In this document: positions 1,471-57,500 of the stretch, in pieces
Numbering within the stretch: the stretch's first letter is position 1
How the letters are laid out: every line of letters starts with the position of its first letter
DNA from: Eledone cirrhosa
Taxonomy: Eukaryota
Direction: 5' to 3'
Length of the DNA: 64,000 nt
Assembly: GCA_964016885.1 (NCBI GenBank)
Contig: OZ024741.1
Coordinates: forward strand, 41,044,001-41,108,000
Position numbers and translations under genes: made by a program
The notes under the pieces: generated by a model
Told to the model about the DNA's origin: nothing
Database searches by the model: none
The model's input: only the letters and a program-made list of their open reading frames with translations

Positions 1471-1691
1471 ACGTACAATTTGGTATGTGAAGGGTAAGGC
1501 AAAAAGAATATATTGGGGGGGGGGGGAGGCATAGGAACAGGTGAAATATAAGGGGAGATAAGGGAGAAGAAAATACAAGAGTACAGAACGTGGATTCATC
1601 AAATAAAAAAAAACTGTAGCAGAAGTAAAGAGCAGAAAAGGAGTTCAAGGCGGTTGATTTATCATAGGAGTGTCAATCCAGTTACAGATCA

Positions 1692-1830
1692 GTTATAATA
1701 AGCGCCGCTAAACTGATACGTGCATATATGTATGTGTACCTGTATGTACGTATACATGCATACTTACATTTAAGTAAGTGCCATACTAAGAGTGAGAAAT
1801 GAAATTTCGTTTTCATTTTGTTTCAATTTA
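1692..1830 (+). mobile_element. Fragment of the non-coding hammerhead-bearing repeat family at 32471-33727
   Basis: gctaaactgat.cgtgcatatatg...catactaagagtgagaaatgaaatttcgttttcatt matches 33547-33585 and 33215-33260. Confidence 0.8.
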
Positions 1831-2807: not shown

Positions 2808-3049
2808 CGTTTCCTCCTTTTGTATTGTATGTCTACGCCATTTTTATTCAGTCTGTCTATATATTTAGTTATTTATTTGATTGTTTGTTTATTTTATTTT
2901 GTCTTCTTTGCGCATGCGTTTGCGTGTGTGTATAGTGTTTTGTTTGCTGTGTGATGGGTGACTAGTGTGTGTTTATGTGCTTGTTGTTATTGTGCTTGTG
3001 TATGTATTTATTTATACTTCTCTTAGGTCAGTGTTGTTTGTTTGGGTGT

Positions 3050-4605
3050 TGTTGTTATTCCATTCATTCTTTCTGTTTAGTCTTGGTCCTCTAATTTCTA
3101 TTTCACTCGCCTCTCTGCTGGGTCATTTCTATGTTTAGATATTATTCTAATTTCTATGTTGTCTATGTTACCGTCATGTTGTTGTCTAGCATGTTCGTAT
3201 AGTACTGACCCGTTTTTTCGTCCTTTATTTCCCCCAGTGTTGGTCTATCCTTTCACCTATGTATGTTGTTGTCATGTTTCTGCAAGTACCCTCTGTACAT
3301 CTTATGCTATAGACTACGTTTCTAGTTTTACAGTTTATCCGGGGGTTTACCTTACATATGATACATTTCCTATTGGTACAGTGGGTTTTCTTAAAAGGGT
3401 AGGTTTTGCTGATCAGGGATTTTATGGTGGTTCCTGGCTTTTCTACCACCTTAATTTTTAAGTGGGTCTTTCTACACTGGCTAGCTAATTTCCCTCCAGG
3501 GGTAGCATCCACAAACATGACACTCTGGTATCTCTGGTTGTCGTACCATGAGGTGGCTTTCCCTATCTTATGTCTAGCCCTATCTAAGCTATTCCATGAT
3601 TTGCTCCTGTATAATGGGCAAATTCCTTTCATGTCCAGTTCTATGAGGGTCTTATACTTCTCCATGGCTCCTTCGTATACTCTGACTCTGTCTCTTTGGT
3701 TGTAGCCAGAGAACTGCATGCGGTTGATGAAGTGTTGGATGTGTCTTTCCATTTCTGTTGGGTCGCACATGCGGGACACATTCTTCATCACTCGTACCAA
3801 ATCTGCGATCAGAATATTAAACTTAGCACTACTGGACATTGCTGAGTTTTTGAGTATCAGGTATTTGGAGGCCATGGGTTTAGCATAGTGTGAGTGGAGA
3901 ATTTGGGCTCTCTCGTCTATAGTGTTAATCCAGAGTTCTGTGTCTAATACAGGTAGTCTATTGTTAGGGTGTTTGGAAGGGAAGTCGATAGTTACAGTTA
4001 TACTCTGGTGTATGGAATTAGCTATCTGCTGGATGCTTTCCATCATGCTACGTTCTAAATCAAACTTGTTAGTGCTCTCTAGTGGGGGTGTTCTTATAAC
4101 TATATTGATATCGTCTACATAACGAGAGTACATGATGAGGTCTATGGAGCTCTCATTAAGGAGATCTTTAAGTCTCCTTTCCCACCATACCATGAAAAGG
4201 TTGGCAACATCACCAGCTATGCTGACGCCAATGGCTGCTCCCTCATTTTGGGTGTAGATCTTCTCGTTGAACTTAAATATGTGGCCCTTTAGGGTAGTTT
4301 TGATACTAGCCCCTATTGCATGTGCGACCATTTTTCTTTTTTTTTTATTACCTGATCATTGTTTTGGGGGGTCCGTATAGCTTTGGTCCACCCAATCCAC
4401 CTTCCCATGGGAGTCTTTTTTGCCATTGAGGTTATGGTGGGGGGTCTACCTCTTATAGGTCTACTAGGGCAGAAACGTCTAAGGTCATGGGTGTCTAGGT
4501 AGTCAGTGTCGTAGGTAAGTCTAAGTAGGAGGCCCAGTTCGTCTCTGTCGACGTCGCAGAACTCCACCTCACTCTCAATGATCATCTCCACACATCTTTT
4601 CACAG
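3050..4605 (-). pseudogene. PLE reverse transcriptase + GIY-YIG endonuclease, disrupted
   Basis: ORF 3225..4331 has YTQNEGAAIG, YSRYVDD, LPVLD, a Cys linker CTNRKCIIC, then NVVYSIRC...TYIGE. Frameshift in the T-run near 4330-4348 and near 3228. Confidence 0.9.
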
Positions 4606-5230
4606 CAATAGGAAATGTATCATATGTAAGGTAAACCCCCGGATAAACTGTAAAACTAGAAACGTAGTCTATAGCATAAGATGTACAGAGGGTACTTGCA
4701 GAAACATGACAACAACATACATAGGTGAAAGGATAGACCAACACTGGGGGGAACTAAAAGGACGAAAAAACGGGTCAGTACTATACGAACATGCTAGATA
4801 ACAACATGACGGTAACATAGACAACATAGAAATTAGAATAATATCTAAACATAGAAATGACCCAGCAGATAGGCAAATCAGAGAGGCGAGTGAAATAGAA
4901 ATTAGAAGACCAAGACTAAACAGAAAGAATGAATGGAATAACAACAACACCCAAACAAACAACACTGACCTAAGAGAAGTATAAATAAGTAAATAAAATA
5001 AAATAAATAAATAAATAAATAAATAAATAAATACATACACAAGCACAATAACAACAAGCACATAAACACACACTAGTCACCCATCACACAGCAGACAAAA
5101 CACTATACACACACGCAAACGCATGCGCAAAGAAGACAAAATAAAATAAACAAACAAGCAAATAAATAAATAAATATATAGACAGACTGAATAAAAATGG
5201 CGTAGACATACAATACAACAGGAGGAAACG

Positions 5231-12990: not shown

Positions 12991-15286
12991 AGTATAATGT
13001 TTGTGGGAAAAGGAAAGAGAATGTCTTCAATGTATCACATGGTTCACCATTGTCACTTATATAAATTATGTACTGAGACTACAAAGGGAACTTTCACAAA
13101 AGAAAGAAATATCAAGAATCTAATTTTATCGATGAAAACTTCATGACCATATTTCTAATGAAGGAATTTGACTACCTTGAGGGATGAATGCAAGAGAAAA
13201 GGGCCAAGATGCGCTTCCTAATGCATATATTTATTTTTAAAAAACTATCATAGACCCTTTCTTAAGTTGTTTCAAACACCAGCATAAAGCCTTTAATATG
13301 AGACCAACTGAAACTACACCTAGTTGACACAAAGTTGTATATTTTAAAGTGTTCAAATTTCTATAGAATCCTTCTATCATAATTTTATGTAAGAACCTAT
13401 TTCAAACACTAGATAAATATAAAAAATTAGTCATACTACTAAATCCCTCCAAATTCTTGATTACTTTAAAAGTTATTTGAAAATCATATGCAGTGTTTTA
13501 CATTAGAAACATGATAACAAAAAGGTTAAATATAAACATTTAAAGTTTTCTATATCATCATAACACTAGAAAGAGGTTTAGAGTATCAATAGAGTTAAGA
13601 TAAAGACAAAGCAAAGTTAAACTTTTCTCATAAAGATATCTAGGTAGAGAGAGAAGAAAGCTCATCATAGAATGTATCTCTAGAGACTAGATAAAGAGGA
13701 TATTGATGCAGGCACCACAGACTAGTATTTGTTGAAGGGGAGGGGGGGTAGAAGAAGATGAAGAACAACACCATCAACAAAAACAGCAAGAAGGAAAAGA
13801 AGATGAAGAAATGAAGAAAATATATGAAAGAATAAAGTTTAAAAGACCGCTGATAGCCTATACATGGTTGATAATGGTATGCCTTTTCATTAGACACTAA
13901 ACATGTTTTACACCAAGGATATTGACTCTATTTAATATACTTTTACTTCAAACTAAACCGAAGATAATAGGAAATGGAATTATTTTGGGTGTAAAACTTT
14001 ACAACTTTCATATCTGTGCTATAAAAAAATATAACTCATTCATATTCAAAGAACTGAAAAAAAAAGCTGACATTTAATATAGACATATGGGAGGGCGTGT
14101 GTTTGCGTATTTGTATTCTATAAGAAATTGCTCAGCATTTGTGAGAAAAATATAATTTATTTCTTTATTTTGTTATTTAACAGCTATTTTACTTCAGTTG
14201 CATTGGTGACTTTTCCTGTTCAAGCAATTGCTTTCATAGCTGGATGCTTTTCCTATTTTAAACTAGACGAGAAATTTGAAATGTGTTGTTCAGACCAACT
14301 GGAACTAGAGTTTGTTTTAATCAAGTACAGTGAGCTTGCATCTTACACAGTTTTAAATAATGTGGTTTGGTGAGCTTACATCTTATACAGTTTTAAATAA
14401 TGTGGTTTGGTGAGCTTGCATCTTACACAGTTTTAAATAATGTGGTTTGGTGAGCTTGCATCTTATACAGTTTTAAATAATGTCGTTTTCGTGAGCTTGC
14501 ATCTTATACAGTTTTAAATAGTGTGGTTTGGTGAGCTTGCATCTTACACAGTTTTAAATAATGTGGTTTTGTGAGCTTGTATCTTATACAGTTTTAAATA
14601 GTGTGGTTTGGTGAGCTTGCATCTTATACAGTTTTAAATAATGTCGTTTTCTTACACAGTTTTAAATAGTGTGGTTTGGTGAGCTTGCATCTTACACAGT
14701 TTTAAATAATGTGGTTTGGTGAGCTTGTATCTTATACAGTTTTAAATAATGTGGTTTGGTGAGCTTGTATCTTATACAGTTTTAAATAATGTGGTTTTGT
14801 GAGCTTGCATCTTACACAGTTTTAAATAATGTGGTTTGGTGAGCTTGCATCTTACACAGTTTTAAATAATGTGGTTTTGTGAGCTTGCATCTTATACAGT
14901 TTTAAATAATGTCGTTTTCGTGAGCTTGCATCTTATACAGTTTTAAATAGTGTGGTTTGGTGAGCTTGCATCTTACACAGTTTTAAATAATGTGGTTTTG
15001 TGAGCTTGCATCTTATACAGTTTTAAATAATGTCGTTTTCGTGAGCTTGCATCTTACACAGTTTTAAATAATGTGGTTTGGTGAGCTTGCATCTTACACA
15101 GTTTTAAATATACAGTTTTAAATAATGTGGTTTTGTGAGCTTGTATCTTATACAGTTTTAAATAGTGTGGTTTGGTGAGCTTGCATCTTACACAGTTTTA
15201 AATAATGTCGTTTTCGTGAGCTTGCATCTTACACAGTTTTAAATAGTGTGGTTTGGTGAGCTTGCATCTTACACAGTTTTAAATAA

Positions 15287-15468
15287 TTGTTTCTACTTTT
15301 GGCACAAGGCCAGCAATTACCCAGTGCATTACTGGTACTTTATTTTATCGACCCCGTAAGGATGAAAGGCAAAGTCAACCTCGGCGGGATTTGAACTCAG
15401 ATCGTAAAGGGACGTAACTATGCTGGAAAGCAGGGCGTCCGACCCTCTACTGATACTGCCAATCCACC
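15287..15468 (-). mobile_element. Meta-like SINE inside satellite
   Basis: Reverse complement of the 12808 family. Confidence 0.9.
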
Positions 15469-16052
15469 TGCATCTTACACAGTATTAAATAATGTGGTTT
15501 GGTGAGCTTACATCTTACACAGTTTTAAATAATGTGGTTTGGTGAGCTTGTATCTTATACAGTTTTAAATAATGTGGTTTGGTGAGCTTACATCTTACAC
15601 AGTTTTAAATAATGTGGTTTGGTGAGCTTGTATCGTACACAGTTTTAAATAATGTGGTTTTGTGAGCTTACATCTTATACAGTTTTAAATAATGTGGTTT
15701 GGTGAGCTTGCATCTTACACAGTTTTAAATAATGTGGTTTTGTGAGCTTACATCTTATACAGTTTTAAATAATGTGGTTTGGTGAGCTTGCATCTTACAC
15801 AGTATTAAATAATGTGGTTTGGTGAGCTTACATCTTACACAGTTTTAAATAATGTGGTTTGGTGAGCTTGTATCTTATACAGTTTTAAATAATGTGGTTT
15901 GGTGAGCTTACATCTTACACAGTTTTAAATAATGTGGTTTGGTGAGCTTGCATCGTACACAGTTTTAAATAATGTGGTTTTGTGAGCTTACATCTTATAC
16001 AGTTTTAAATAATGTGGTTTGGTGAGCTTGTATCTTATACAGTTTTAAATAA

Positions 16053-16238
16053 TTGTTTCTACTTTAGGCACAAGGCCAGCAATTACCCAGTGCATTACTG
16101 GTACTTTATTTTATCGACCCCGTAAGGATGAAAGGCAAAGTCAACCTCGGCGGGATTTGAACTCAGATCGTAAAGGGACGTAACTATGCTGGAAAGCATG
16201 GCGTCCGACCCTCTACCGATACTGCCAATCCACCGCCC
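16053..16238 (-). mobile_element. Meta-like SINE inside satellite, with target-site duplication
   Basis: Near-identical to the 15287 copy; flanked by ttttaaataat on both sides. Confidence 0.9.
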
Positions 16239-16699
16239 TTTTAAATAATGTTTTAAATAATGTGGTTTTCATGAGCTTGCATCTTACACAGTTGTAAATA
16301 ATGTGGTTTTGTGAGCTTGTATCTTATACAGTTTTAAAGAATGTGGTTTTGTGAGCTTGCATCTTACACAGTTTTAAATAATGTGGTTTTGTGAGCTTGC
16401 ATCTTACACAGTTTTAAATAATGTGGTTTTGTGAGCTTGCATCTTACACAGTTTTAAATAATGTGGTTTTGAATATACTTGGTTGGAAATTATTTCAAAA
16501 ACAATCAAAGAAGGCTATAAAATTATTAATGTTCTGTTCCACCTAAAACTGCATTACCTAATCTAATAGAAAAAACTCTACCACTACTCTTATCCTTTTC
16601 CAGAATTTGTTCAGCCTCTAGAGAACCTGATATTATGTTTCCTCCAAAACATTGACATACACAGGCACTTTTATATAACGGCTGTGTATATAAAGAGTA

Positions 16700-17974: not shown

Positions 17975-19820
17975 GATGAAGATAGACTGTTGCTAATAGT
18001 GGACTGTCAATAGATAGACTGTTGCTAACAGCGGAGTGTTGATAGATAGACCGTTGCTAACAGTGAAGTGTCAATAGATAGACTGTTGCTAACAGTGGAC
18101 TGTCGATAGATAGACTGTTGCTAACAGTGGACTGTCAATAGATAGACTGTTGCTAACAGTGGAGTGTCATAGATAGACTGTTGCTAACAGTGGACTGTCG
18201 ATAGATAGACTGTTGCTAACAGTGGACTGTCAATAGATAGACTGTTGCTAACAGTGGAGTGTCAATAGATAGAGTGTTGCTAACAGTGGAGTGTCAATAG
18301 ATAGAGTGTTGCTAACAGTGGAGTGTCAATAGATAGACTGTTGCTAACAGTGGACTGTCGATAGATAGACTGTTGCTAACAGTGGACTGTCAATAGATAG
18401 ACTGTTGCTAACAGTGGAGTGTCAATAGATAGAGTGTTGCTAACAGTGGAGTGTCAATAGATAGAGTGTTGCTAACAGTGGAGTGTCAATAGATAGAGTG
18501 TTGCTAACAGTGGAGTGTCAATAGATAGACTGTTGCTAACAGTGGAGTGTCAATAGATAGACTGTTGCTAACAGTGGAGTGTCAATAGATAGACTGTTAC
18601 TAACAGTCGACTGTCAATAGATAGACTGTTGCTAACAGTGGAGTGTCAATAGATAGAGTGTTGCTAACAGTGGAGTGTCAATAGATAGAGTGTTGCTAAC
18701 AGTGGAGTGTCAATAGATAGAGTGTTGCTAACAGTGGAGTGTCAATAGATAGAGTGTTGCTAACAGTGGAGTGTCAATAGATAGACTGTTGCTAACAGTG
18801 GACTGTCGATAGATAGACTGTTGCTAACAGTGGACTGTCAATAGATAGACTGTTGCTAACAGTGGAGTGTCAATAGATAGAGTGTTGCTAACAGTGGAGT
18901 GTCAATAGATAGAGTGTTGCTAACAGCGGAGTGTCAATAGATAGAGTGTTGCTAACAGTGGAGTGTCAATAGATAGACTGTTGCTAACAGCGGAGTGTTG
19001 ATAGATAGACCGTTGCTAACAGTGAAGTGTCAATAGATAGACTGTTGCTAACAGTGGACTGTCGATAGATAGACTGTTGCTAACAGTGGAGTGTCAATAG
19101 ATAGAGTGTTGCTAACAGTGGAGTGTCAATAGATAGAGTGTTGCTAACAGTGGAGTGTCAATAGATAGAGTGTTGCTAACAGTGGAGTGTCAATAGATAG
19201 ACTGTTGCTAACAGTGGACTGTCGATAGATAGACTGTTGCTAACAGTGGACTGTCAATAGATAGACTGTTGCTAACAGTGGAGTGTCAATAGATAGAGTG
19301 TTGCTAACAGTGGAGTGTCAATAGATAGAGTGTTGCTAACAGTGGAGTGTCAATAGATAGAGTGTTGCTAACAGTGGAGTGTCAATAGATAGACTGTTGC
19401 TAACAGTGGAGTGTCAATAGATAGACTGTTGCTAACAGTGGAGTGTCAATAGATAGACTGTTACTAACAGTCGACTGTCGATAGATAGAGTGTTGCTAAC
19501 AATGGACTGTCAATAGATAGACTGTTGCTAACAGTGGAGTGTCAATAGATAGAGTGTTGCTAAGAGTGGGCTGTTGATAGATAGACTGTTGCTAACAGTG
19601 GAGTGTCAATAGATAGACTGTTACTAACAGTCGACTGTCGATAGATAGACTGTTGCTAACACTGGACTGTCAATAGATAGACTGTTGCTAACAGTGGAGT
19701 GTCAATATATAGATTGTTGCTAAGAGTGGGCTATTGATAGATAGACTGTTGCTAACAGTGGACTGTTGATAGAGAGACTGTTGCTAATAGAAGAGTGTTG
19801 AATAAAGACTGTGGCTAACA
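17975..19820. repeat. 32-bp tandem satellite
   Basis: Unit atagatagactgttgctaacagtggagtgtca, period 32. Confidence 0.97.
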
Positions 19821-20784: not shown

Positions 20785-21430
20785 CTCATAAACCATGAAA
20801 CTTCACACACATGTAGCATATATCTTTCCCTTCAATTCTATCCATCTCCACATTCACCACCATGTATCACTCCTTTAAACCATGGAACTTCTCACACATG
20901 TAGCATACATCTTTCCCTTCAATTCTATCCAGCTCCACATTCACCACCCATGTCTCATTCCTATAAACCATGGAACTTCTCACACATGTAGCATACATCT
21001 TTCTCCTCAATTCTATCCATCTCCACATTCACCACCCATGTCTCACTCCTATAAACCATGGAACTTCTCACACATGTAGCATATATCTTTCCCTTCAATT
21101 CTATCCATCTCCACATTCACCACCATGTCTCACTCCTATAAACCATGGAACTTCTCACACATGTAGCATATATCTTTCCCTTCAATTCTATCCATCTCCA
21201 CATTCACCACCATGTCTCACTCCTTTAAACCATGGAACTTCTCACACATGTAGCATACATCTTTCCCTTCAATTCTATCCATCTCCACATTCACCACCCA
21301 TGTCTCACTCCTATAAACCATGGAACTTCTCACATATGTAGCATACATCTTTCCCTTCAATTCTATCCATCTCCACATTCACCACCATGTCTCAATCCCA
21401 TAAACCATGGAACTTCTCACACATGCAGTA
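20785..21430. repeat. 87-88-bp tandem minisatellite (~7 copies, degenerate flanking units)
   Basis: Unit aaaccatggaacttctcacacatgtagcata...cacattcaccacccatgtctcactcctat. Confidence 0.95.
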
Positions 21431-21756
21431 TACACCTTTAACTTACATTCTTTCCACCTTCTCTCTGTTGCTCCACATTCATCAACCATGTCTAGCTCCT
21501 ATAAACATCTAACATACGTTTTCCCAGTAGGTTTACATTTTTGTCTTTTGTTTTTTAAAGAAGAAATCTGTGTCACCCAAGAACTGCCAACCTTTATTAT
21601 TTATATGATAAATAATTGAAAGTGTTAAAACAATAAAATCACAACTGAATTAAATTACAAATAAATTCTCCATGTAAAATATCCTAGAGGAATATAAGCC
21701 TGTTGGAGAAATGTCTTATTGAGTAGTGCATTGCCCAAAGTCTGTCTATCTCACTC

Positions 21757-29317: not shown

Positions 29318-29401
29318 AAATATATATATATATAAGTATATATATATATATGTGTATATATATAACATAAACACAGAGCTGGCATATCTAAGAACTGACT
29401 A

Positions 29402-29457
29402 ACTGCCTGATGAGGTCATAGCCATTCAATGGCTATCATTGAAATATATATAGCAGT
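29402..29457 (+). ncRNA. Type I hammerhead ribozyme motif in non-coding insert 29365-29505
   Basis: ACUGC-CUGAUGA-GGUCAUAGCCAU(UCA)AUGGCUAUCAUU-GAAA-UAUAUA-UA-GCAGU; palindromic stem III. Confidence 0.85.
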
Positions 29458-29550
29458 AAATAAAGGATTATGAGTTCATGCAATTGACTTATGTTTCGTC
29501 ACTATATAAATATATAACTATATATAACTATATAACTATATAAATATATG

Positions 29551-29651: not shown

Positions 29652-30044
29652 ATCATCATCATCATCATCATCATTTTACGTCCGCTTTTCCCTGCTTGCA
29701 AGGGTGGGACGGGAACTGATTCTGGCTTCATTTCTACAGCTGGATGCCCTTCCTAACACCAACCTCATTTACAGTGAGTGCTGGGTGGTTTTTTTCCATG
29801 GTGCCTACACGTCCACTTTACAGTGTGGGCTGGGTGCTTTTTTTGCCGTGGCACCTCCACGACCACTTTGCAGTGGAATGATAGGGACCCCAGTCCTATC
29901 ATCTCATTTCTACAGCTGAGTAAACTGGAGCAATGTGAAATGAAGTATCTTGCTCAAGGAAACAACACATCACCCGGTCTGAGAATTGAACTCACAACCT
30001 TTCGATTGCAAGCCCAATGCTCTAACCACTAAGCCATGTGCCTC
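29652..30044 (-). mobile_element. Full tRNA/CORE-like SINE with RTE-derived 3' half
   Basis: Head ggcacatggcttagtggttagagc...gagttcaattctc; tail matches the RTE 3' ends; (GAT)n. Confidence 0.85.
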
Positions 30045-30049
30045 CATAT

Positions 30050-32398
30050 ATCATCATCACCGTTTTACGTCCGTTCTTCCACGCTAGCATGGGTTAGACG
30101 GGTTGTCCTGTTGTGGGCAGTGTCTGGTCGGCTGACCATGCCTTGCTCATACAGGAACTGATCTGGCTTGATTTCTAAAGCTGGATGCCCTTCCTAACAC
30201 CAACCTCATTTACAGTGAGTGCTGGTTGCTTTTTCGTGGCGCCTACACGTCCACTTTACAGTGTGGGCTGGGTGCTTTTTTGCCGTTGCACCTCCACGAC
30301 CACCTTGCGGTGGGGGGGGGGGGGCATATTGTTTATATGCTTCAGCATGTACCCATGGGAGGTCGGGTACCCTGTATTACTGCGTGACGCCAGAAGTCAC
30401 GGTCGTGTGTCATTGACTTTGAGAGGTGTAGTTGGGTAAGGTCGGCTTTTATCACCTCATCCCAAGTCATCTTGGGTCTCCCCACTCCGCGGTTTCCATC
30501 AACTTCTAGTGCTCTGCACCTTTTTATGCAGCTGTCATCCTTCATACGCATCACATGTCCATACCAGTGTAACCGCCTCTCCTGCACGCAGCATTTGATT
30601 CCTCTTATGCTCAGTCTCTCTCTCAATTCATTTATGCTTTGTCGTTCACGTATATTACTGTTACACATCCATCGGAGCATGCAGGCTTCGTTTCTCTCTA
30701 ATCTACGTAAGTCTTCCACCTTCAGCGCCCAGGTCTCACTACCATGCAACATCGCTGTTCGGATACACGCATCATACAGTCTGCCTTTCATTCTGAGGGA
30801 GAAGCCTTTTGCAGCTAGCAGTGGTAGTAGTTCCCTAAACTTCTTCCATCCCGTTCTTACCCTAGTTATTGTACTTTCTGAGCACCCACCTCCGTTGCTA
30901 ATTCGGTCACCTAGGTAGCAGAAGCTGTCTACTGTTTCTACAGGGCCCTCCCAGAGATTGGTGGTACTTGTTTCCTGTGGCTGTTTGCTTGCTGTTTCAG
31001 CACAGCTGCTGCATGTGAATCCTACATTCTTAATTAAGCTTCCTGAGATCCCGCTACATCTCTTGTGTACCCATTGTTTGCATTTGGGGCAGAGAATGGA
31101 GTTCCTACCTACACCTTTCCTACATACTGAGCAAGGCCATTTCCCTGAGGGGATCTGGGTTCTGTTTTCTCGTCTACTTATAAGGACCTTAGTCTTTGTC
31201 ATGTTGACTTTGAGGCCCTTTCTCTCTAGTCCCTGCTTCCAGGTTTGGAATTTATTCTCTAGTTCTACCATAGATTCAGCTATGAGTGCGAGGTCATCAG
31301 CATACAGGAGTTCCCATGGGCATCCGGTCTTAAACTCCTCCGTTATTGCCTGCAGGACTATGATGAACAGGAGAGGGCTAAGAACAGAGCCCTGGTGGAC
31401 CCCAACCTGTACGCTAAATTCCTCGCTATACTCATTGCCAATCCTAACTTTGCTGACTGCTCCCCTATACATGGCTTGTACCGCTTTCACAAGCCATTCA
31501 TCTACTCCTAGTTTTCTAAGAGCCCACCAGATTACTGCACGTGGAACTCTGTCAAAGGCTTTCTCAAGGTCGACAAATGCCAAGTAGAGTGGCTTACTTT
31601 TAGCTAGGTACTTTTCCTGTAATTGCCTCACAAGGAAGAGGGCATCAGTGGTGCCTTTCCCTGGTACAAACCCAAATTGCATCTCGTCTATATTCACCCG
31701 GTCCCTAATCAGCTGTGCTATAACTCTTTCTGTTACTTTCATGACCTGGTCCATCAACTTTATACCTCTATAGTTTCCTCTATCTAGTGCATCGCCTTTA
31801 CCTTTGTAGCAGTTGACAATGATGCTACTGCACCAATCTTTTGGTATGGCCCCCTCTAGTATTACCTGGTTAACGATACGTGTGGTTATAGTGTGACCTA
31901 CAGACCCAGATGCCTTCAGCATCTCGGCAGCTATACCCGATGGACCGGTTGCCTTCCCTATCTTCATATCTCTGATTGCCTTACTTACTACGCTGCCACT
32001 GACTTGTACTGCTGGTCCCTCTATAGGGTCTACGTGGGGTAGGGTCTCTTCTTCCCATGCATTCTCCTCATTTAGTAATCTATCATAATGACTCTTCCAT
32101 GCATCTTTCTTCTCAGCACTTGTGAGGGCAAGCTCACCTTTATCATTCCGGATACACTTCTCTCCAATGACATCACAACTATCTCTGACACACTGCCTCG
32201 CAATCTTGAATACCTCCTGTTTCTGGTCCTCACGTTGTAAAACATGCTTGAATTTTCTATCCTCTGCTTCCCTCCTAGCTAAGTATATTTGTGGCCTAGC
32301 TTCCCTCTTGGTCTCTATGTAATGTACCCTGCTCCCCCCGTTCTTCCATTCTTTCCATGCCTGTGTCTTGGCCTTGACTGCTTCATCTACCTTATTGT
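30050..32398 (-). mobile_element. RTE subfamily A, 5'-truncated young copy (ORF 30342..31967)
   Basis: FVDLEKAFD, GVHQGSVLSPLLF, YADD. Nearly identical to 54141-56500. Confidence 0.97.
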
Positions 32399-32434
32399 TT
32401 ATATATATATATATAAATATATATATATATAAAT

Positions 32435-32469
<35 letters not shown>

Positions 32470-32779
32470 AATAAGTTGAAAAAAATGAAAACGAAATTTC
32501 ATTTCTCACTCTTAGTATGGCACTTACTTAAATGTAAGTATGTATTTATACGTACATACATATATGTATACAGACGTACAGTAGCGTGCATATATATATA
32601 TATATATATACACATATGCATACAGGTACACATACATATATGCACGCATCAGTTTAGCCGACGTTTATTATAATGCCGGCCGCTTTGTTCGTTTGTTTGT
32701 CAACAAACCGAACAGCCTGAATTTATGCCATACGGTGTTAAGGCAACCACGTCACCTTTTTGTTCAACACTGACACAGG

Positions 32780-32824
32780 AACGATGTACTAGTTTCAAGC
32801 TTGTTAGCTATCATCAGCACCGTT
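32780..32824 (-). ncRNA. Minimal type I hammerhead ribozyme
   Basis: Reverse complement of 33381-33425. Confidence 0.85.
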
Positions 32825-33058
32825 TACCCATCTGCCAGATAGTTGAACGTTCGAAAGTATATACTTTCCTTATGAAAATTAACGGCTGAGCAGCCTAATT
32901 TGCATATTGAGTGAGTTAAATCGGTCAGGCATACCGAAAACGATAAGTTGAAAAAACTGAAAATGAAATTTCATTTCTCACTCTTAGTATGGCACTTACT
33001 TAAATGTAAGTATGCATGTATACGTACATACATATATGTATACAGACGTACAGTAGCA

Positions 33059-33127
<69 letters not shown>

Positions 33128-33380
33128 GCATACAGGTACACATACATATATGCACGCATCAGTTTAGCCGACGTTTATTATAACGCCGGCCGCTTTGTTC
33201 GTTTGTTTGTCAACATACTAAGAGTGAGAAATGAAATTTCGTTTTCATTTTTTTCAACTTATCGTTTTCGGTATGCCTGACCGATTTAACTCACTCAATA
33301 TGCAAATTAGGCTGCTCAGCCGTTAATTTTCATAAGGAAAGTATATACTTTCGAACGTTCAACTATCTGGCAGATGGGTA

Positions 33381-33425
33381 AACGGTGCTGATGATAGCTA
33401 ACAAGCTTGAAACTAGTACATCGTT
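33381..33425 (+). ncRNA. Minimal type I hammerhead ribozyme
   Basis: AACGGUG-CUGAUGA-UAGCU(AACA)AGCUU-GAAA-CUAG-UA-CAUCGUU; 7-bp stem I, palindromic ACUAGU stem III, GUA site. Confidence 0.85.
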
Positions 33426-33600
33426 CCTGTGTCAATGTTGAACAAAAAGGTGACATGGTTGCCTTAACACTGTATGGCATAAATTCAGGCTGTTCGGTTT
33501 GTTGATAAACAAACGAACAAAGCGGCCGGCGTTATAATAAACGTCGGCTAAACTGATGCGTGCATATATGTATGTGTACCTGTATGCATATGTGTATATA

Positions 33601-33676
<76 letters not shown>

Positions 33677-33755
33677 TGCTACTGTACGTCTGTATACATA
33701 TATGTATGTACGTATACATACATACTTATATATAAATATATATATATATATAAAT

Positions 33756-35205
33756 ATTTCTCTTTTACTCTTTTACCTGTTCCAGCCATCCGGCCGAGGC
33801 CATGCTGGGGCACCGCCTTTGTTGCTACACATTTCATCTCCAGCCTGTATTGGTTGGCCACTGGTGTAAGAGGGAGTTTGTTGCTGCTGCCCTTAGGTTT
33901 CCCTCATGCCTTGCTGTGGGCTCATCTGGGATCCTGAATAGCAAGGTGTTGAGATGTTTCTTGAAGACATCCACCTCCACACCATGCAGATCTCTCAGAT
34001 CCCTCGGCAGTTTGTTGAAGAGTTGAGGGCCCTTGAATCCCAGGCTATTGCAATATCTGCTCCTTATTCTAAATGTGGAAGACGGGACCTTTGGCGCCAC
34101 ACAGTGATGTCCTGTTCGATGGTTGGTCCAGCCCCCTATGCCAAAGTTTGGTGCTAGTCCCTCCAGGATTTTCCACATGTAGATCACTGTGTATCTCTCC
34201 TGTCTTCGTTCCAAAGAGAAGAGGTTCAGTTCTTTTAGCCTCTCCCAGTAGCTTATCTCCTTCATCGTGGCAATCTTCCTGGTGTAGCTTCGCTGGATTG
34301 CCTCAAGCTCCATGGTTAGTTTGACACTATGGGGTGACCACAACTGGGAGCAATAGTCCAGGTGGCTTAGGACAAATGTCCTCCATAGTGTCAACATGGT
34401 GTCTCGGTCTATTGTCCAGAAAGTCCTGAAGATCCAGCCAGCGAGTCGTCTGCACATTGTCGCCACTTTCATAATGTGTGGGGAAAAAGATGCATCATCG
34501 CTCATGTCTATACCTAGATCTCGTATTGATTTTGACATGGGGATATCGGTCCCTCCTGGTCCTGCGTAACTGTGTTGTACTGTATTTGTGTTTGCAAGTT
34601 TGTATTGTAGGGCTTGGAATTTGCCAGCATTAAACTGCATGTTGTTTTCTTCTGCCCATTTGTATATGGCATCCAGATCTTGTTGTAAAAGGGCAGTGTC
34701 AGCCGGGGTTTTGATTGCCTGTGCTACCTTAGTGTCATCAGCATAGCTAGTGAGGGATGTTATTGTATGTACTACAGAGGGCATGTCTGAGAGAGCCACC
34801 AAAAACAGTAGTGGTCCCAGGACTGTCCCTTGGGGCACCCCACTTGTTATTGATGTTTCCTTTGAGAAGGCCCCGTTTGCTGCAACTGTCTGGCTTCTCT
34901 CCTTTAAGAAGTCGTGCAGCCACTCACCTACTTTTCCAGTTATGCCGAGTCTGTGTAGTTTGTGACATATCATTCCGTGGTCGACCTTGTCAAAGGCCTT
35001 CGCAAAATCAAGATATATCACGTCCACATGTGAGCTGTCTAGCAGTTGTTTCAGTAACCAGTCGTAGTGATGTAGCAGCTGTGTAAGGCAGCTTCTTCCT
35101 GGGCGGAAGCCATGCTGGGTGCTAGTCAGGCGGCATTTTTTTCAGGGAAAGTCATCAGTTTCTTTCTGACGACTCGCTCCATGACTTTACTGATATGTCA
35201 TGTCA
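33756..35205 (-). mobile_element. CR1-group LINE, 5'-truncated (RT ORF 33834..35027)
   Basis: DVIYLDFAKAFDKVDH, SGVPQGTVLGPLLF, YADDTK, LDYCSQLWSP, LFSLERR; (GTAAAAGA)n tail. Confidence 0.93.
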
Positions 35206-43642: not shown

Positions 43643-44499
43643 GGTGCGGACGATATTTGTTTGCAATTTTCAACTGCTAATTTTATGCAAATTTTTTTAC
43701 TTCTGTTGTCACTCTTGTCTTCATAAAAACAGTGACTATATTTCCATTATTTATTTTCAGAATAATTGATTATGAATAATTTTGAACCTCTAAATTTGTG
43801 GAAGAGACACGGAGTTCTTCTTGAAATCCGCGCTGGAATCAACTTCCAGGACAACAGGTGGCTCGCTGTCTCATCCAAAGACGTGCCCAGAGTCATACAG
43901 ACAAAGTTTCCAGCGACAACATTGGTCTTAGGTGTCGTCAGCAGTCGAGGTGGCATCATGCCACCTCACTTCTTCCCTGAGGGCCTCAAGCTGAACACCG
44001 ATGGCTACATCCGCGTTCTGAGCAAGGTAGTAAAGTCCTGGATCGACCAGGTAGCTGCAGGTAGGCTGTATGTGTGGCAGCAAGACTCAGTGCCCTGCCA
44101 TACCAGCCGAAAGACCCAAGCCTGGCTGTCAGAGAACTTCATCGACCACACTTCATCTGACATTTGGCCTCCCAGCTCGCCTGACTACAACCACCTCGAC
44201 TTCTTTGTGTGGGGCGCAGCGGAACGAGACACCAACAGATCTAGCTGCAATACGAAAGATGATCTGAAGACCAGGATCACAAGTGCCTTTAAGGGCCTAA
44301 GTCGGGGGACAGTGACAAAGGCCTGTAGCCGATTTCGAGGCCGCCTTGAGGCCGAATGGCAGGTTTATTGAGTGAGATCGAAAGAACAAGTCATGAAGAC
44401 AAACTGACCCAAGTTTGATAAATATATCTTAAAAAATAAAACTACTGTGTTATTTTTTCCTAGACAGTAATCTTGCGAACAGATGTTGTCCGCAACCTG
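43640..44499 (+). mobile_element. Internally deleted Tc1/mariner element, DD37D (maT) family
   Basis: Imperfect TIRs cagggtgcggacgatatttgtttgcaa / ttgcgaacagatgttgtccgcaacctg in TA. ORF 43766..44371 has WQQD...WPPSSPDYNHLD with 37 residues between the 2nd and 3rd Asp; N-terminal domain missing. Confidence 0.9.
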
Positions 44500-50384: not shown

Positions 50385-50840
50385 AAGCAAGAAAGTAAGT
50401 GTTGGTAAAATCCAGTACTTCAGTATGCGGATAGGGAGCACTCAACGAAGATATAAGTTCCGGAGTTATAATAGTGACGAAACATAAGTCAATTGCATGA
50501 ACTCATAATCCTTTATTTACTGCTATATATATTTCGATGATAGCCATTGAATGGCTATGACCTCATCAGGCAGTTAGTCAGTTCTTAGATATGCCAGCTA
50601 TCTGTTTATAGTGTTGATGGTATCAGAGCCTTGGGACATATGAGCTTGTTAGGAATAATTTAATGTTGTCAGCAGAAATAGTCTTAATTCTCATTGGTCA
50701 GGTTGTAGATGCTGTGGTATTTGACCTCAAAGAGGCAGGTGGTGTTGTAAAGTTCAGACCGTCATATGGAACTATTGTCATCTTGCCTGACGGTTTGAAC
50801 TTTACCACACCACCTGTTCATGCAATTGACTTAGGTTTCG

Positions 50841-54140: not shown

Positions 54141-57100
54141 TATCATCATCATCATCATCATCACCGTTTTACGTCCGTTCTTCCACGCTAGCATGGGTTA
54201 GACGGGTTGTCCTGTTGTGGGCAGTGTCTGGTCGGCTGACCATGCCTTGCTCATACAGGAACTGATCTGGCTTGATTTCTACAGCTGGATGCCCTTCCTA
54301 ACACCAACCTCATTTACAGTGAGTGCTGGGTGCTTTTTCGTGGCGCCTACACGTCCACTTTACAGTGTGGGCTGGGTGCTTTTTTGCCGTGGCACCTCCA
54401 CGACCACCTTGCGGTGGGGGGGGGGGGGCATATTGTTTATATGCTTCAGCATGTACCCATGGGAGGTCGGGTACCCTGTATTACTGCGTGACGCCAGAAG
54501 TCACGGTCGTGTGTCATTGACTTTGAGAGGTGTAGTTGGGTAAGGTCGGCTTTTATCACCTCATCCCAAGTCATCTTGGGTCTCCCCACTCCGCGGTTTC
54601 CATCAACTTCTAGTGCTCTGCACCTTTTTATGCAGCTGTCATCCTTCATACGCATCACATGTCCATACCAGTGTAACCGCCTCTCCTGCACGCAGCATTT
54701 GATTCCTCTTATGCTCAGTCTCTCTCTCAATTCATTTATGCTTTGTCGTTCACGTATATTACTGTTACACATCCATCGGAGCATGCAGGCTTCGTTTCTC
54801 TCTAATCTACGTAAGTCTTCCACCTTCAGCGCCCAGGTCTCACTACCATGCAACATCGCTGTTCGGATACACGCATCATACAGTCTGCCTTTCATTCTGA
54901 GGGAGAAGCCTTTTGCAGCTAGCAGTGGTAGTAGTTCCCTAAACTTCTTCCATCCCGTTCTTACCCTAGTTATTGTACTTTCTGAGCACCCACCTCCGTT
55001 GCTAATTCGGTCACCTAGGTAGCAGAAGCTGTCTACTGTTTCTACAGGGCCCTCCCAGAGATTGGTGGTACTTGTTTCCTGTGGCTGTTTGCTTGCTGTT
55101 TCAGCACAGCTGCTGCATGTGAATCCTACATTCTTAATTAAGCTTCCTGAGATCCCGCTACATCTCTTGTGTACCCATTGTTTGCATTTGGGGCAAAGAA
55201 TGGAGTTCCTACCTACACCTTTCCTACATACTGAGCAAGGCCATTTCCCTGAGGGGATCTGGGTTCTGTTTTCTCGTCTACTTATAAGGACCTTAGTCTT
55301 TGTCATGTTGACTTTGAGGCCCTTTCTCTCTAGTCCCTGCTTCCAGGTTTGGAATTTATTCTCTAGTTCTACCATAGATTCAGCTATGAGTGCGAGGTCA
55401 TCAGCATACAGGAGTTCCCATGGGCATCCGGTCTTAAACTCCTCCGTTATTGCCTGCAGGACTATGATGAACAGGAGAGGGCTAAGAACAGAGCCCTGGT
55501 GGACCCCAACCTGTACGCTAAATTCCTCGCTATACTCATTGCCAATCCTAACTTTGCTGACTGCTCCCCTATACATGGCTTGTACCGCTTTCACAAGCCA
55601 TTCATCTACTCCTAGTTTTCTAAGAGCCCACCAGATTACTGCACGTGGAACTCTGTCAAAGGCTTTCTCAAGGTCGACAAATGCCAAGTAGAGTGGCTTA
55701 CTTTTAGCTAGGTACTTTTCCTGTAATTGCCTCACAAGGAAGAGCGCATCAGTGGTGCCTTTCCCTGGAACAAACCCAAATTGCATCTCGTCTATATTCA
55801 CCCGGTCCCTAATCAGCTGTGCTATAACTCTTTCTGTTACTTTCATGACCTGGTCCATCAACTTTATACCTCTATAGTTTCCTCTATCTAGTGCATCGCC
55901 TTTACCTTTGTAGCAGTTGACAATGATGCTACTGCACCAATCTTTTGGTATGGCCCCCTCTAGTATTACCTGGTTAACGATACGTGTGGTTATAGTGTGA
56001 CCTACAGACCCAGATGCCTTCAGCATCTCGGCAGCTATACCCGATGGACCGGTTGCCTTCCCTATCTTCATATCTCTGATTGCCTTACTTACTACGCTGC
56101 CGCTGACTTGTACTGCTGGTCCCTCTATAGGGTCTACGTGGGGTAGGGTCTCTTCTTCCCATGCATTCTCCTCATTTAGTAATCTATCATAATGACTCTT
56201 CCATGCATCTTTCTTCTCAGCACTTGTGAGGGCAAGCTCACCTTTATCATTCCGGATACACTTCTCTCCAATGACATCACAACTATCTCTGACACACTGC
56301 CTCGCAATCTTGAATACCTCCTGTTTCTGGTCCTCACGTTGTAAAACATGCTTGAATTTTCTATCCTCTGCTTCCCTCCTAGCTAAGTATACTTGTCGCC
56401 TAGCTTCCCTCTTGGTCTCTATGTAATGTACCCTGCTCCCCCCGTTCTTCCATTCTTTCCATGCCTGTCTCTTGGCCTTGACTGCTTCATCTACCTTATT
56501 GTTCCACCACCAAGTCACTCTCCTCCTGCTTGAGGTCTTACTCCAGCCACAAACCTCATCCGTCGCCTCTAGTAAGTTATTTTTTAGGAACTCCCAGTTC
56601 TCTTCTACGTTAAATGTCTCTATCTGTTCTTCTTTACTGTCGTAGGCGTTGAGTAAAATATCTTTAAATCTGTTACTGGTTGAGGGGACTTTCAGCTTCC
56701 AGATCTTTCTTCTCCAGGTTGGCCTCTGTTTCAGGGCTCGTCTAGTTCTGACCGTGAGGTCGCTGACAACTAAGCTATGTTGGGATGTACATTCCTCACT
56801 AGGGAAGGCTTTTGTGTTTACGACCGTCCATCTGTCACGTCCTCTGATGAGGATAAAATCTAACTGACTAGAGTGCTCCCCTGATCTATAGGTGATCAGG
56901 TGGTTGTCGGGTTTTTTAAAGTTTGTGTTACATATCGACATGTCATTGGCGTCGCAGAATTCTAGAAGTCTGAATCCTTCCTCATTCCTTGTGCCAACTC
57001 CATGGCCTCCATGTACTCTATTGAAGCCGTCGCAGTGTTTACCTACGTGTCCGTTAAAATCTCCTGCAATGATTAGGAAGTCCTTGTCGTCTGTTAGAGC

Positions 57101-57460
57101 AGTAGTGTGTATTAGGGACTCGTAAAACCTATCCTTAAGTTCGTCTGGCAGCCCCGATTGGGGTGCGTAAGCTGATATTATTGTGGTAATTGTCTTATTC
57201 AGGACTAGTCTGAGTTTAATGATTCTTGCATTTACCCTGTACACTGAGATTACTTTATCTACCCACTTGTCAGCTAATAGTATACCTACACCACCCATCC
57301 CATCGTCATTTCCCACCCAGAAAAATTTGTAGCACTGGCTTTTTCCTACAAGGACTCTAGCAGACCCTCCTCTCCATCTAGTCTCTTGCACACAGCATAC
57401 ATCAACTTCCTTTCGCTCTAGCATTTCTACGATTTCTCCTGCTCTTCCTTTCATTGAGCC
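54141..57460 (-). mobile_element. Near full-length RTE subfamily A LINE
   Basis: (GAT)n tail, 3' UTR, single 1002-aa ORF; truncated at (TA)n just inside the endonuclease N-terminus. Confidence 0.97.
54446..57454 (-). CDS. APE endonuclease - reverse transcriptase - PHD finger polyprotein (first residues missing)
   Basis: CVQETRW, SAYAPQ, GDFNGHVG, LDFIL, SQH (EN); FVDLEKAFD, QGSVLSP, YADD (RT); C4HC3 motif; no stops. Confidence 0.93.
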   Translation of the reverse strand: MKGRAGEIVEMLERKEVDVCCVQETRWRGGSARVLVGKSQCYKFFWVGNDDGMGGVGILLADKWVDKVISVYRVNARIIKLRLVLNKTITTIISAYAPQSGLPDELKDRFYESLIHTTALTDDKDFLIIAGDFNGHVGKHCDGFNRVHGGHGVGTRNEEGFRLLEFCDANDMSICNTNFKKPDNHLITYRSGEHSSQLDFILIRGRDRWTVVNTKAFPSEECTSQHSLVVSDLTVRTRRALKQRPTWRRKIWKLKVPSTSNRFKDILLNAYDSKEEQIETFNVEENWEFLKNNLLEATDEVCGWSKTSSRRRVTWWWNNKVDEAVKAKRQAWKEWKNGGSRVHYIETKREARRQVYLARREAEDRKFKHVLQREDQKQEVFKIARQCVRDSCDVIGEKCIRNDKGELALTSAEKKDAWKSHYDRLLNEENAWEEETLPHVDPIEGPAVQVSGSVVSKAIRDMKIGKATGPSGIAAEMLKASGSVGHTITTRIVNQVILEGAIPKDWCSSIIVNCYKGKGDALDRGNYRGIKLMDQVMKVTERVIAQLIRDRVNIDEMQFGFVPGKGTTDALFLVRQLQEKYLAKSKPLYLAFVDLEKAFDRVPRAVIWWALRKLGVDEWLVKAVQAMYRGAVSKVRIGNEYSEEFSVQVGVHQGSVLSPLLFIIVLQAITEEFKTGCPWELLYADDLALIAESMVELENKFQTWKQGLERKGLKVNMTKTKVLISRRENRTQIPSGKWPCSVCRKGVGRNSILCPKCKQWVHKRCSGISGSLIKNVGFTCSSCAETASKQPQETSTTNLWEGPVETVDSFCYLGDRISNGGGCSESTITRVRTGWKKFRELLPLLAAKGFSLRMKGRLYDACIRTAMLHGSETWALKVEDLRRLERNEACMLRWMCNSNIRERQSINELRERLSIRGIKCCVQERRLHWYGHVMRMKDDSCIKRCRALEVDGNRGVGRPKMTWDEVIKADLTQLHLSKSMTHDRDFWRHAVIQGTRPPMGTC

Positions 57461-57500
57461 TATATATATTCATTGAGCCTATATATATATATATATATAT

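Follow-up and report, generated by a model that had tools for sequence, protein, structure and literature searches.

We analyzed a window of 64,000 nt from the Eledone cirrhosa genome (contig OZ024741.1, positions 41,044,001 to 41,108,000), which holds two arms of a repeat joined head to head within a (TA)n microsatellite. The left arm has its ribozyme sense on the minus strand and consists of a full unit of 472 nt (32471..32942), whose 3' end at 32471 represents the "long" end described below, and of a second, 5'-truncated unit without ribozyme (32943..33215, minus strand), whose internal (TA)n is expanded at 33062-33120. The right arm (33214..33728, plus strand) comprises about one unit, with its "short" end near 33728. 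Both arms meet 5' to 5' with an overlap of 2 nt (33214..33215), and the target microsatellite borders the block on the left (32400..32470) and on the right (33729..33757). A tail of ~58 nt, of the type found in Penelope-type elements (PLEs) and corresponding to the stretch between the short and the long 3' end sites, is present at the end of the left arm (32471..32528, minus strand) and absent from that of the right arm. Each arm carries one type I hammerhead, located at 32780..32824 on the minus strand (predicted cut after 32787) and at 33381..33425 on the plus strand (cut after 33418 as predicted by the descriptor), and the two 45-nt sequences are identical. Since each arm, and thus each strand, has one hammerhead only, the locus cannot itself release a monomer. 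In addition, an 8-bp long-range stem is predicted within the left unit (32515..32733, minus strand; 32726-32733 with 32515-32522), with its 3' strand just beyond the short end site.

A preliminary description of this DNA had noted that the unit start recurs 472 nt apart (32471 and 32943), that the inverted arm reads across the unit junction (at 33261/33262), that (TA)n bounds the block on both sides and that the monomer has no real ORF. All of this was confirmed, the longest ATG frame comprising 62 aa of microsatellite-derived sequence. The proposed tandem of 472-nt monomers has to be narrowed: the repeat is real, but the direct tandem extends over ~1.5 units and its second unit stops before the ribozyme; similarly, 472 nt is the length of the copy at this locus, whereas family units range from 454 to 538 nt in arrays owing to the internal (TA)n. 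The diverged fragment reported at ~1690-1830 is a separate short insertion of another subfamily (1690..1830, plus strand), internally deleted and with its long end against (TA)n.

Further elements are found in the surroundings of the block. An RTE-type LINE fragment lies on its left and another LINE fragment on its right. Two copies of a young RTE-type LINE (54446-57469 and 30342-32399 (-)), with a 1,007-aa frame for RT plus a PHD finger, are ~99% identical over the 400 nt compared. A tRNA-like stretch at 29979-30036 on the minus strand (Rfam, 31.2 bits) is probably the head of a SINE, minisatellites with units of 40, 32 and 87 nt occupy 14330-16471, 17980-19820 and 20788-21439, respectively, and a 201-aa frame (43766-44371, plus strand) resembles, by its putative motifs, a fragment of a Tc1/mariner-type transposase.

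The hammerhead of the repeat has a helix I of 7 bp, a helix II of 4 bp above a U-U pair at its base and a helix III formed by a perfect 6-nt palindrome (33412-33417, A15.1 to U16.1). It had been described as one well-formed hammerhead per monomer; the motif is present, but the U-U pair and helix III, which would need a 2-nt loop in the monomer (pair probability ~2e-6), do not fit that wording. Between two molecules, the same palindrome forms a duplex of -4.8 kcal/mol. Metazoan motifs with a palindromic helix III were reported to be poor monomers that fold and are active as dimers (PMC4209133), and our fold predictions suggest that cleavage likely needs two ribozymes pairing in this way. An Rfam search gave no match to the hammerhead at gathering level; the best sub-threshold match was HH9 (18.9 bits, E 0.15), and matches to miRNA families were rejected as artefacts of the TA repeats. 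Besides that, the window contains an unrelated type I hammerhead in two copies (29398-29460, plus strand, and near 50569, minus strand), in which helix II is long and helix III reads TATATA, and which resembles other PLE-end ribozymes of the genome. A further tandem hammerhead family of the genome shows a spacing of ~310 nt and a CGCG helix III (loci L039, L186 and L222).

Pairing was compared across 12 units of related families, representing about four lineages. With the structure derived from the same alignment, 13/48 pairs were changed on both sides and 98.4% of the cells pair, compared to 24–49% in slid controls. Three of the both-side changes fall into helix I and three into helix II, and 3/8 pairs of the long-range stem beside the short end site were also changed on both sides. 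This covariation is supportive of the predicted hammerhead and stem, short of statistical proof. Diverged families preserve the catalytic core, the palindrome of helix III and the pairing of helices I and II. Folded as circles, seven units were 64–71% paired (z -3.9 to -11.6, 25 shuffles each), with the monomer ends held together by an extended helix I; their longest ATG frames comprise 30–74 aa. Taken by itself, the ribozyme region of 101 nt shows no unusual stability (z -0.9), and the z of -8.3 for the whole-unit fold is partly due to a TA hairpin.

The genome of 3.0 Gb contains 10,032 exact matches to the 41-nt ribozyme core compared to none for the reversed control; recurrence of the hammerhead is therefore not due to chance. 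The best full-length matches to the unit are 98–99% identical. Further related cores amount to 11,341 (9 control matches), and among the matches listed most of them belong to an older family and to families of 466–469 nt. The relatives include a sister family of 422 nt (4,071 motif matches) and the older family (913 matches); the latter was considered as the pLTR of an autonomous element, as it is mostly single-copy, and was rejected as an older ORF-less sister family among the copies listed. The ORF-less families with units of 422, 434 and 466–469 nt share the fold and the end rule described below (L140-L156, L224-L297). One arm of these related families, at C1:5.74 Mb, comprises ~30 units. 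At the level of sequence, the family shows every feature by which the available text of PMC7229834 and 10.64898/2026.07.22.740005 characterizes non-LTR retrozymes, and on this basis the block belongs to a young non-LTR retrozyme family with an ORF-less unit of ~470 nt and a type I hammerhead. For active copies, at least two consecutive intact hammerheads are demanded (10.64898/2026.07.22.740005). Two or more per arm occur in 23/90 sampled arms, the locus itself having one per strand.

The ends of copies were mapped in 49 sequence windows holding the first 100 matches on contig C1, which yielded 90 arms; positions are given in S, the ribozyme-sense unit (reverse complement of 32471-32942). The long class (S460-472) accounts for 45 of these arms and the short class (S405-419) for 34; the remaining 11 end at other points, eight of them at the internal TA tract. 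Thus, 79/90 arms have their 3' end at one of two fixed sites 58 nt apart. Circular permutation of the copy ends, which the preliminary description had expected, is not supported by these fixed 3' ends; scatter is confined to the 5' truncations. One of the 90 5' ends lies no more than 10 nt from the cut site, where four were expected. Genome-wide, 187 copies lack the A preceding the cut compared to 161 at a control site, which is no pile-up; 54 of the 187 sit in one array, and by eye true junctions were seen in 2/20 inspected copies. These counts replace a read-through count of 60/60, which was set aside as biased by the selection of intact ribozymes. Because 5' ends do not accumulate at the cut site, linear monomers produced by the cut do not usually serve as the template.

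Head-to-head pairs follow a rule. Wherever both ends could be classed, one was long and the other short, in 24/24, 20/20 and 17/17 pairs according to three parsers run on the same 49 windows, with 9 and 11 further pairs having an unclassed end in the first and second of these counts, respectively (20/20, binomial p 1.9e-6 against 0.5). A second sample, which includes the locus in the window, gave 9/10 pairs with L037 as the single exception, and two sister families gave 4/4 and 5/5. The same rule applies to two autonomous PLE families of this genome, PLE-A (5/5) and PLE-B (10/10). Tails of the repeat measure ~58 nt, those of the sisters 56 and 68 nt, of PLE-A 45 and 59 nt and of PLE-B 89 nt; a further recurrent end type has a tail of ~80 nt. 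At nearly all classed ends the 3' flank consists of (TA)n or (CA)n-(TA)n; L100 is an exception.

This architecture matches that of PLE integration. Features listed for PLE insertions are incomplete tandems, a 5'-truncated copy in inverted orientation and a tail on one side (PMC8557442). In vitro, AT-rich DNA is cut by a PLE protein on both strands, each of which is then extended, and reverse transcription starts at two internal sites of the RNA, the tail being the stretch between them (PMC11167929). The family shows the inverted 5'-truncated arm, the tail at one end only and the microsatellite or AT-rich target, and the mapped arms thus support the earlier proposal of PLE-style inverted 5' arms on a dispersed, tandem, ORF-less hammerhead family. 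By analogy, the two fixed ends with a one-sided tail are best read as the PLE footprint of internal reverse-transcription starts. As the mapped ends fit the two-site starts of PMC11167929, PLE-type integration is the firm part of our model. From the long/short rule we infer that the two DNA ends use different RNA start sites. By comparison, it is very improbable, and largely refuted, that the repeat is a satellite at the DNA level or a MITE-like element whose hammerhead-like motif is incidental. The DNA duplications seen in arrays and the lack of a gathering-level Rfam match would suit such an origin, but 3' ends at fixed sites together with random truncation of the 5' side, the targeting of (TA)n, a pairing rule as in PLEs, compensatory changes in the ribozyme helices and the excess of related cores over control matches speak against it.

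The enzyme might be supplied by one of the PLE families of the genome. PLE-A comprises 32,233 candidates with frames of up to 1,217-1,218 aa and 96–99% identity to the copy in the window, which is broken (3015-4981, minus strand) and includes an inverted arm (4604-4981); the PLE-A frame carries a long Asn-rich insert, and PLE-A is missed by Pfam. Tail length in PLE-A/A2 matches that of the repeat. As a source of the pLTR, PLE-A was rejected because its pLTR shows no similarity to the unit. PLE-B is young (L204-L223) and comprises 2,365 candidates with frames of 821 aa, a hammerhead of its own and an 89-nt tail. By motif only (RW, DKT, CxCX5C; PMC8557442) it appears Hydra-clade-like, and a protein search gave 23 relatives with 31–42% identity. 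The PLE-B pLTR does not match the unit either. In two chimeric blocks (L094:4682-6160, L097:2200-5815) an arm of the repeat is fused without TA to PLE-B coding sequence, the long/short rule being kept. As an indication of PLE-B being the partner via template switching, these fusions are a weak lead: fusions to RTE and PLE-C occur too, and a later insertion plus deletion explains the PLE-B fusions equally well.

It is improbable that the units are solo or tandem pseudo-LTRs of an autonomous PLE whose ORF-bearing copies were missed. Such an origin would account for an end architecture identical to that of autonomous PLEs and has a parallel in frog retrozymes, which are often homologous to pLTRs (10.64898/2026.07.22.740005); moreover, the genome was read in part. 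In the 49 windows with the first 100 matches, however, no copy is placed as a regular pLTR on an RT ORF, no ORF junction recurs and no LTR layout is seen; consistent attachment to an RT ORF had been named in the preliminary description as grounds for refutation. No element with an ORF and a homologous pLTR was found among the loci examined. Unlike autonomous PLEs, the repeat has no ORF for RT plus GIY-YIG between pLTRs. In every array read, the end of one unit is followed immediately by the start of the next. Direct fusions to an ORF are few and involve unrelated elements at unrelated points, neither the PLE-A nor the PLE-B pLTR resembles the unit, and four related families are ORF-less too.

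The arms run on across unit junctions as well as across cut sites, which means that a multimeric or circular template was copied. To this extent the earlier proposal of copying from a multimeric or circular RNA stands, but long tandems alone are no proof of a rolling circle. By eye, a single microsatellite signature, different from one insertion to the next, is usually common to the units of an insertion in both of its arms, and 13/31 multi-unit insertions have a private fixed variant, as predicted by a monomer bottleneck. The dimer-type ribozyme and the predicted fold that brings the monomer ends together likewise favor a circular monomer as template. Variant patterns with periods of 2 and 4 also occur inside arrays, and one insertion (C1:69.5 Mb) has a mixed unit pattern common to both arms, as would be expected from duplication at the DNA level or from a multimeric template of mixed units. 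A test of distances within and between insertions did not discriminate: the two overlap, the nearest neighbour lying inside the insertion for 28/130 units with 78 ties.

Long, uncut linear transcripts of arrays could also have served a non-autonomous PLE, with circles not being the template, long arrays growing mainly by unequal DNA exchange and the ribozyme being kept for RNA folding or occasional processing. We consider this a serious possibility, held with less than even confidence. All end-site results fit it equally well, and it accounts for the higher-order duplications and for the mixed pattern across arms. It also suits the largest array, which has 99 units and begins with a short inverted arm (G000:C239:91000-141000; L134, L131, L045, L132, L133, L135), as well as a 52-kb stretch (G000:C3:12272037-12324199) in which 54 units have a G at the position before the cut site; this likely gives GUG and predicted inactivity, which suggests a ribozyme-dead array grown as DNA. 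In the only reconstituted PLE, uncut RNA is the main substrate and hammerhead mutants had no effect on insertion in vitro (PMC11167929). Of nine predicted frog retrozyme dimers, only one was cut in vitro (10.64898/2026.07.22.740005), which speaks against the circular reading. On the other side, core, palindrome and helix I/II pairing are kept in diverged families, and the tendency of new variants to be uniform across the units of an insertion needs a monomer bottleneck. Moreover, circles are known for non-LTR retrozymes in coral, mussel and axolotl (PMC7229834).

Altogether, we favor an ORF-less hammerhead repeat that was inserted into (TA)n by a borrowed PLE enzyme from a probably circular monomer RNA, a reading to which we assign a probability of about 0.57. 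Tandem copies would be transcribed and adjacent hammerheads would pair by the palindromic helix III, releasing monomers; ligated to circles, these would resist re-cutting with their one ribozyme each. The PLE enzyme would then cut both (TA)n strands, the two DNA ends would prime at different sites of the RNA, one at the short and one at the long site, and both cDNAs would extend over variable lengths before being joined 5' to 5'. Some arrays may later have been enlarged by DNA duplication. Priming and joining of the PLE type are well supported and very probable, whereas dimer cleavage with circle formation has less support and is somewhat more probable than not. More tentatively, and in our view rather unlikely, a clan of circular ribozymes with more than 25,000 copies in several families and no sequence-matched parent might hijack PLE enzymes by RNA structure alone, one complex priming both ends of a (TA)n break at two different fixed sites on a single circle and rolling round it.

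The class of retrozymes is known. In common with metazoan non-LTR retrozymes (PMC7229834), the repeat has short ORF-less tandems whose units each carry a single type I hammerhead, a GC content below 50%, dispersed copies in the thousands, a structured predicted circle and PLEs in the same genome, and the basal U-U pair of helix II recurs in axolotl HHR_Amex2. It differs by its ~470 nt, compared to 150–450 bp, and by the internal (TA)n, the strict (TA)n targeting and the lack of a visible TSD. Neither inverted arms nor fixed, paired 3' ends are described in the available part of PMC7229834, which demonstrates circles and cleavage, whereas here both are predicted. Vertebrate retrozymes likewise occur as monomers, dimers and multimers, with units of 51–972 bp, a range that includes the present unit, and a link to PLEs has been proposed (10.64898/2026.07.22.740005). 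There, the link is co-occurrence and pLTR homology, whereas here it is a PLE-specific footprint without pLTR homology; the words "tail" and "initiation" are absent from the main text of that source as available.

Autonomous EN+ PLEs such as Poseidon PAc (PMC11167929; PMC8557442) resemble the family in several respects: their tandems are partial, one arm is inverted and truncated at its 5' side, a tail is present at one end only, the targets are AT or (TA)n, and the repeat contains a hammerhead. In contrast, the present repeat has no ORF, and its tail of 58 nt exceeds the 30–40 bp quoted; autonomous PLE families of the Eledone genome have tails of ~45–90 nt. Non-autonomous Chlamys elements, for example MRC1 (PMC8557442), are also ORF-less, mobilised by PLEs and multicopy in head-to-tail order. 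As described in that source, however, these algal elements in general have 3' sequence in common with autonomous families, and a canonical hammerhead is missing from most Chlamys. In the literature searched, with subscription papers mostly outside its scope, we found no report of this repeat family or of PLE tails or paired ends in retrozymes.

PLEs have been considered "a strong candidate" for moving animal retrozymes (PMC7229834), and the mechanism of mobilisation was stated to remain to be elucidated (10.64898/2026.07.22.740005). The insertions described here carry a PLE-specific two-site tail and a near-strict long/short rule shared with autonomous PLEs of the same genome. As genomic evidence for the mobilisation of a retrozyme by PLEs this appears unusually direct; it is mechanistic support for such mobilisation and not a new kind of element. 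From the long/short rule it follows that the two cut strands are primed asymmetrically; in vitro, by contrast, no difference between strands was reported for PAc in the available text of PMC11167929. Since this genome combines young, long-frame PLE copies with a mapped RNA substrate of ~470 nt, the question is directly testable. If true, the priming of circles at two fixed sites would be direct genomic proof of rolling-circle retrotransposition and would explain the one-sided tail of PLEs.
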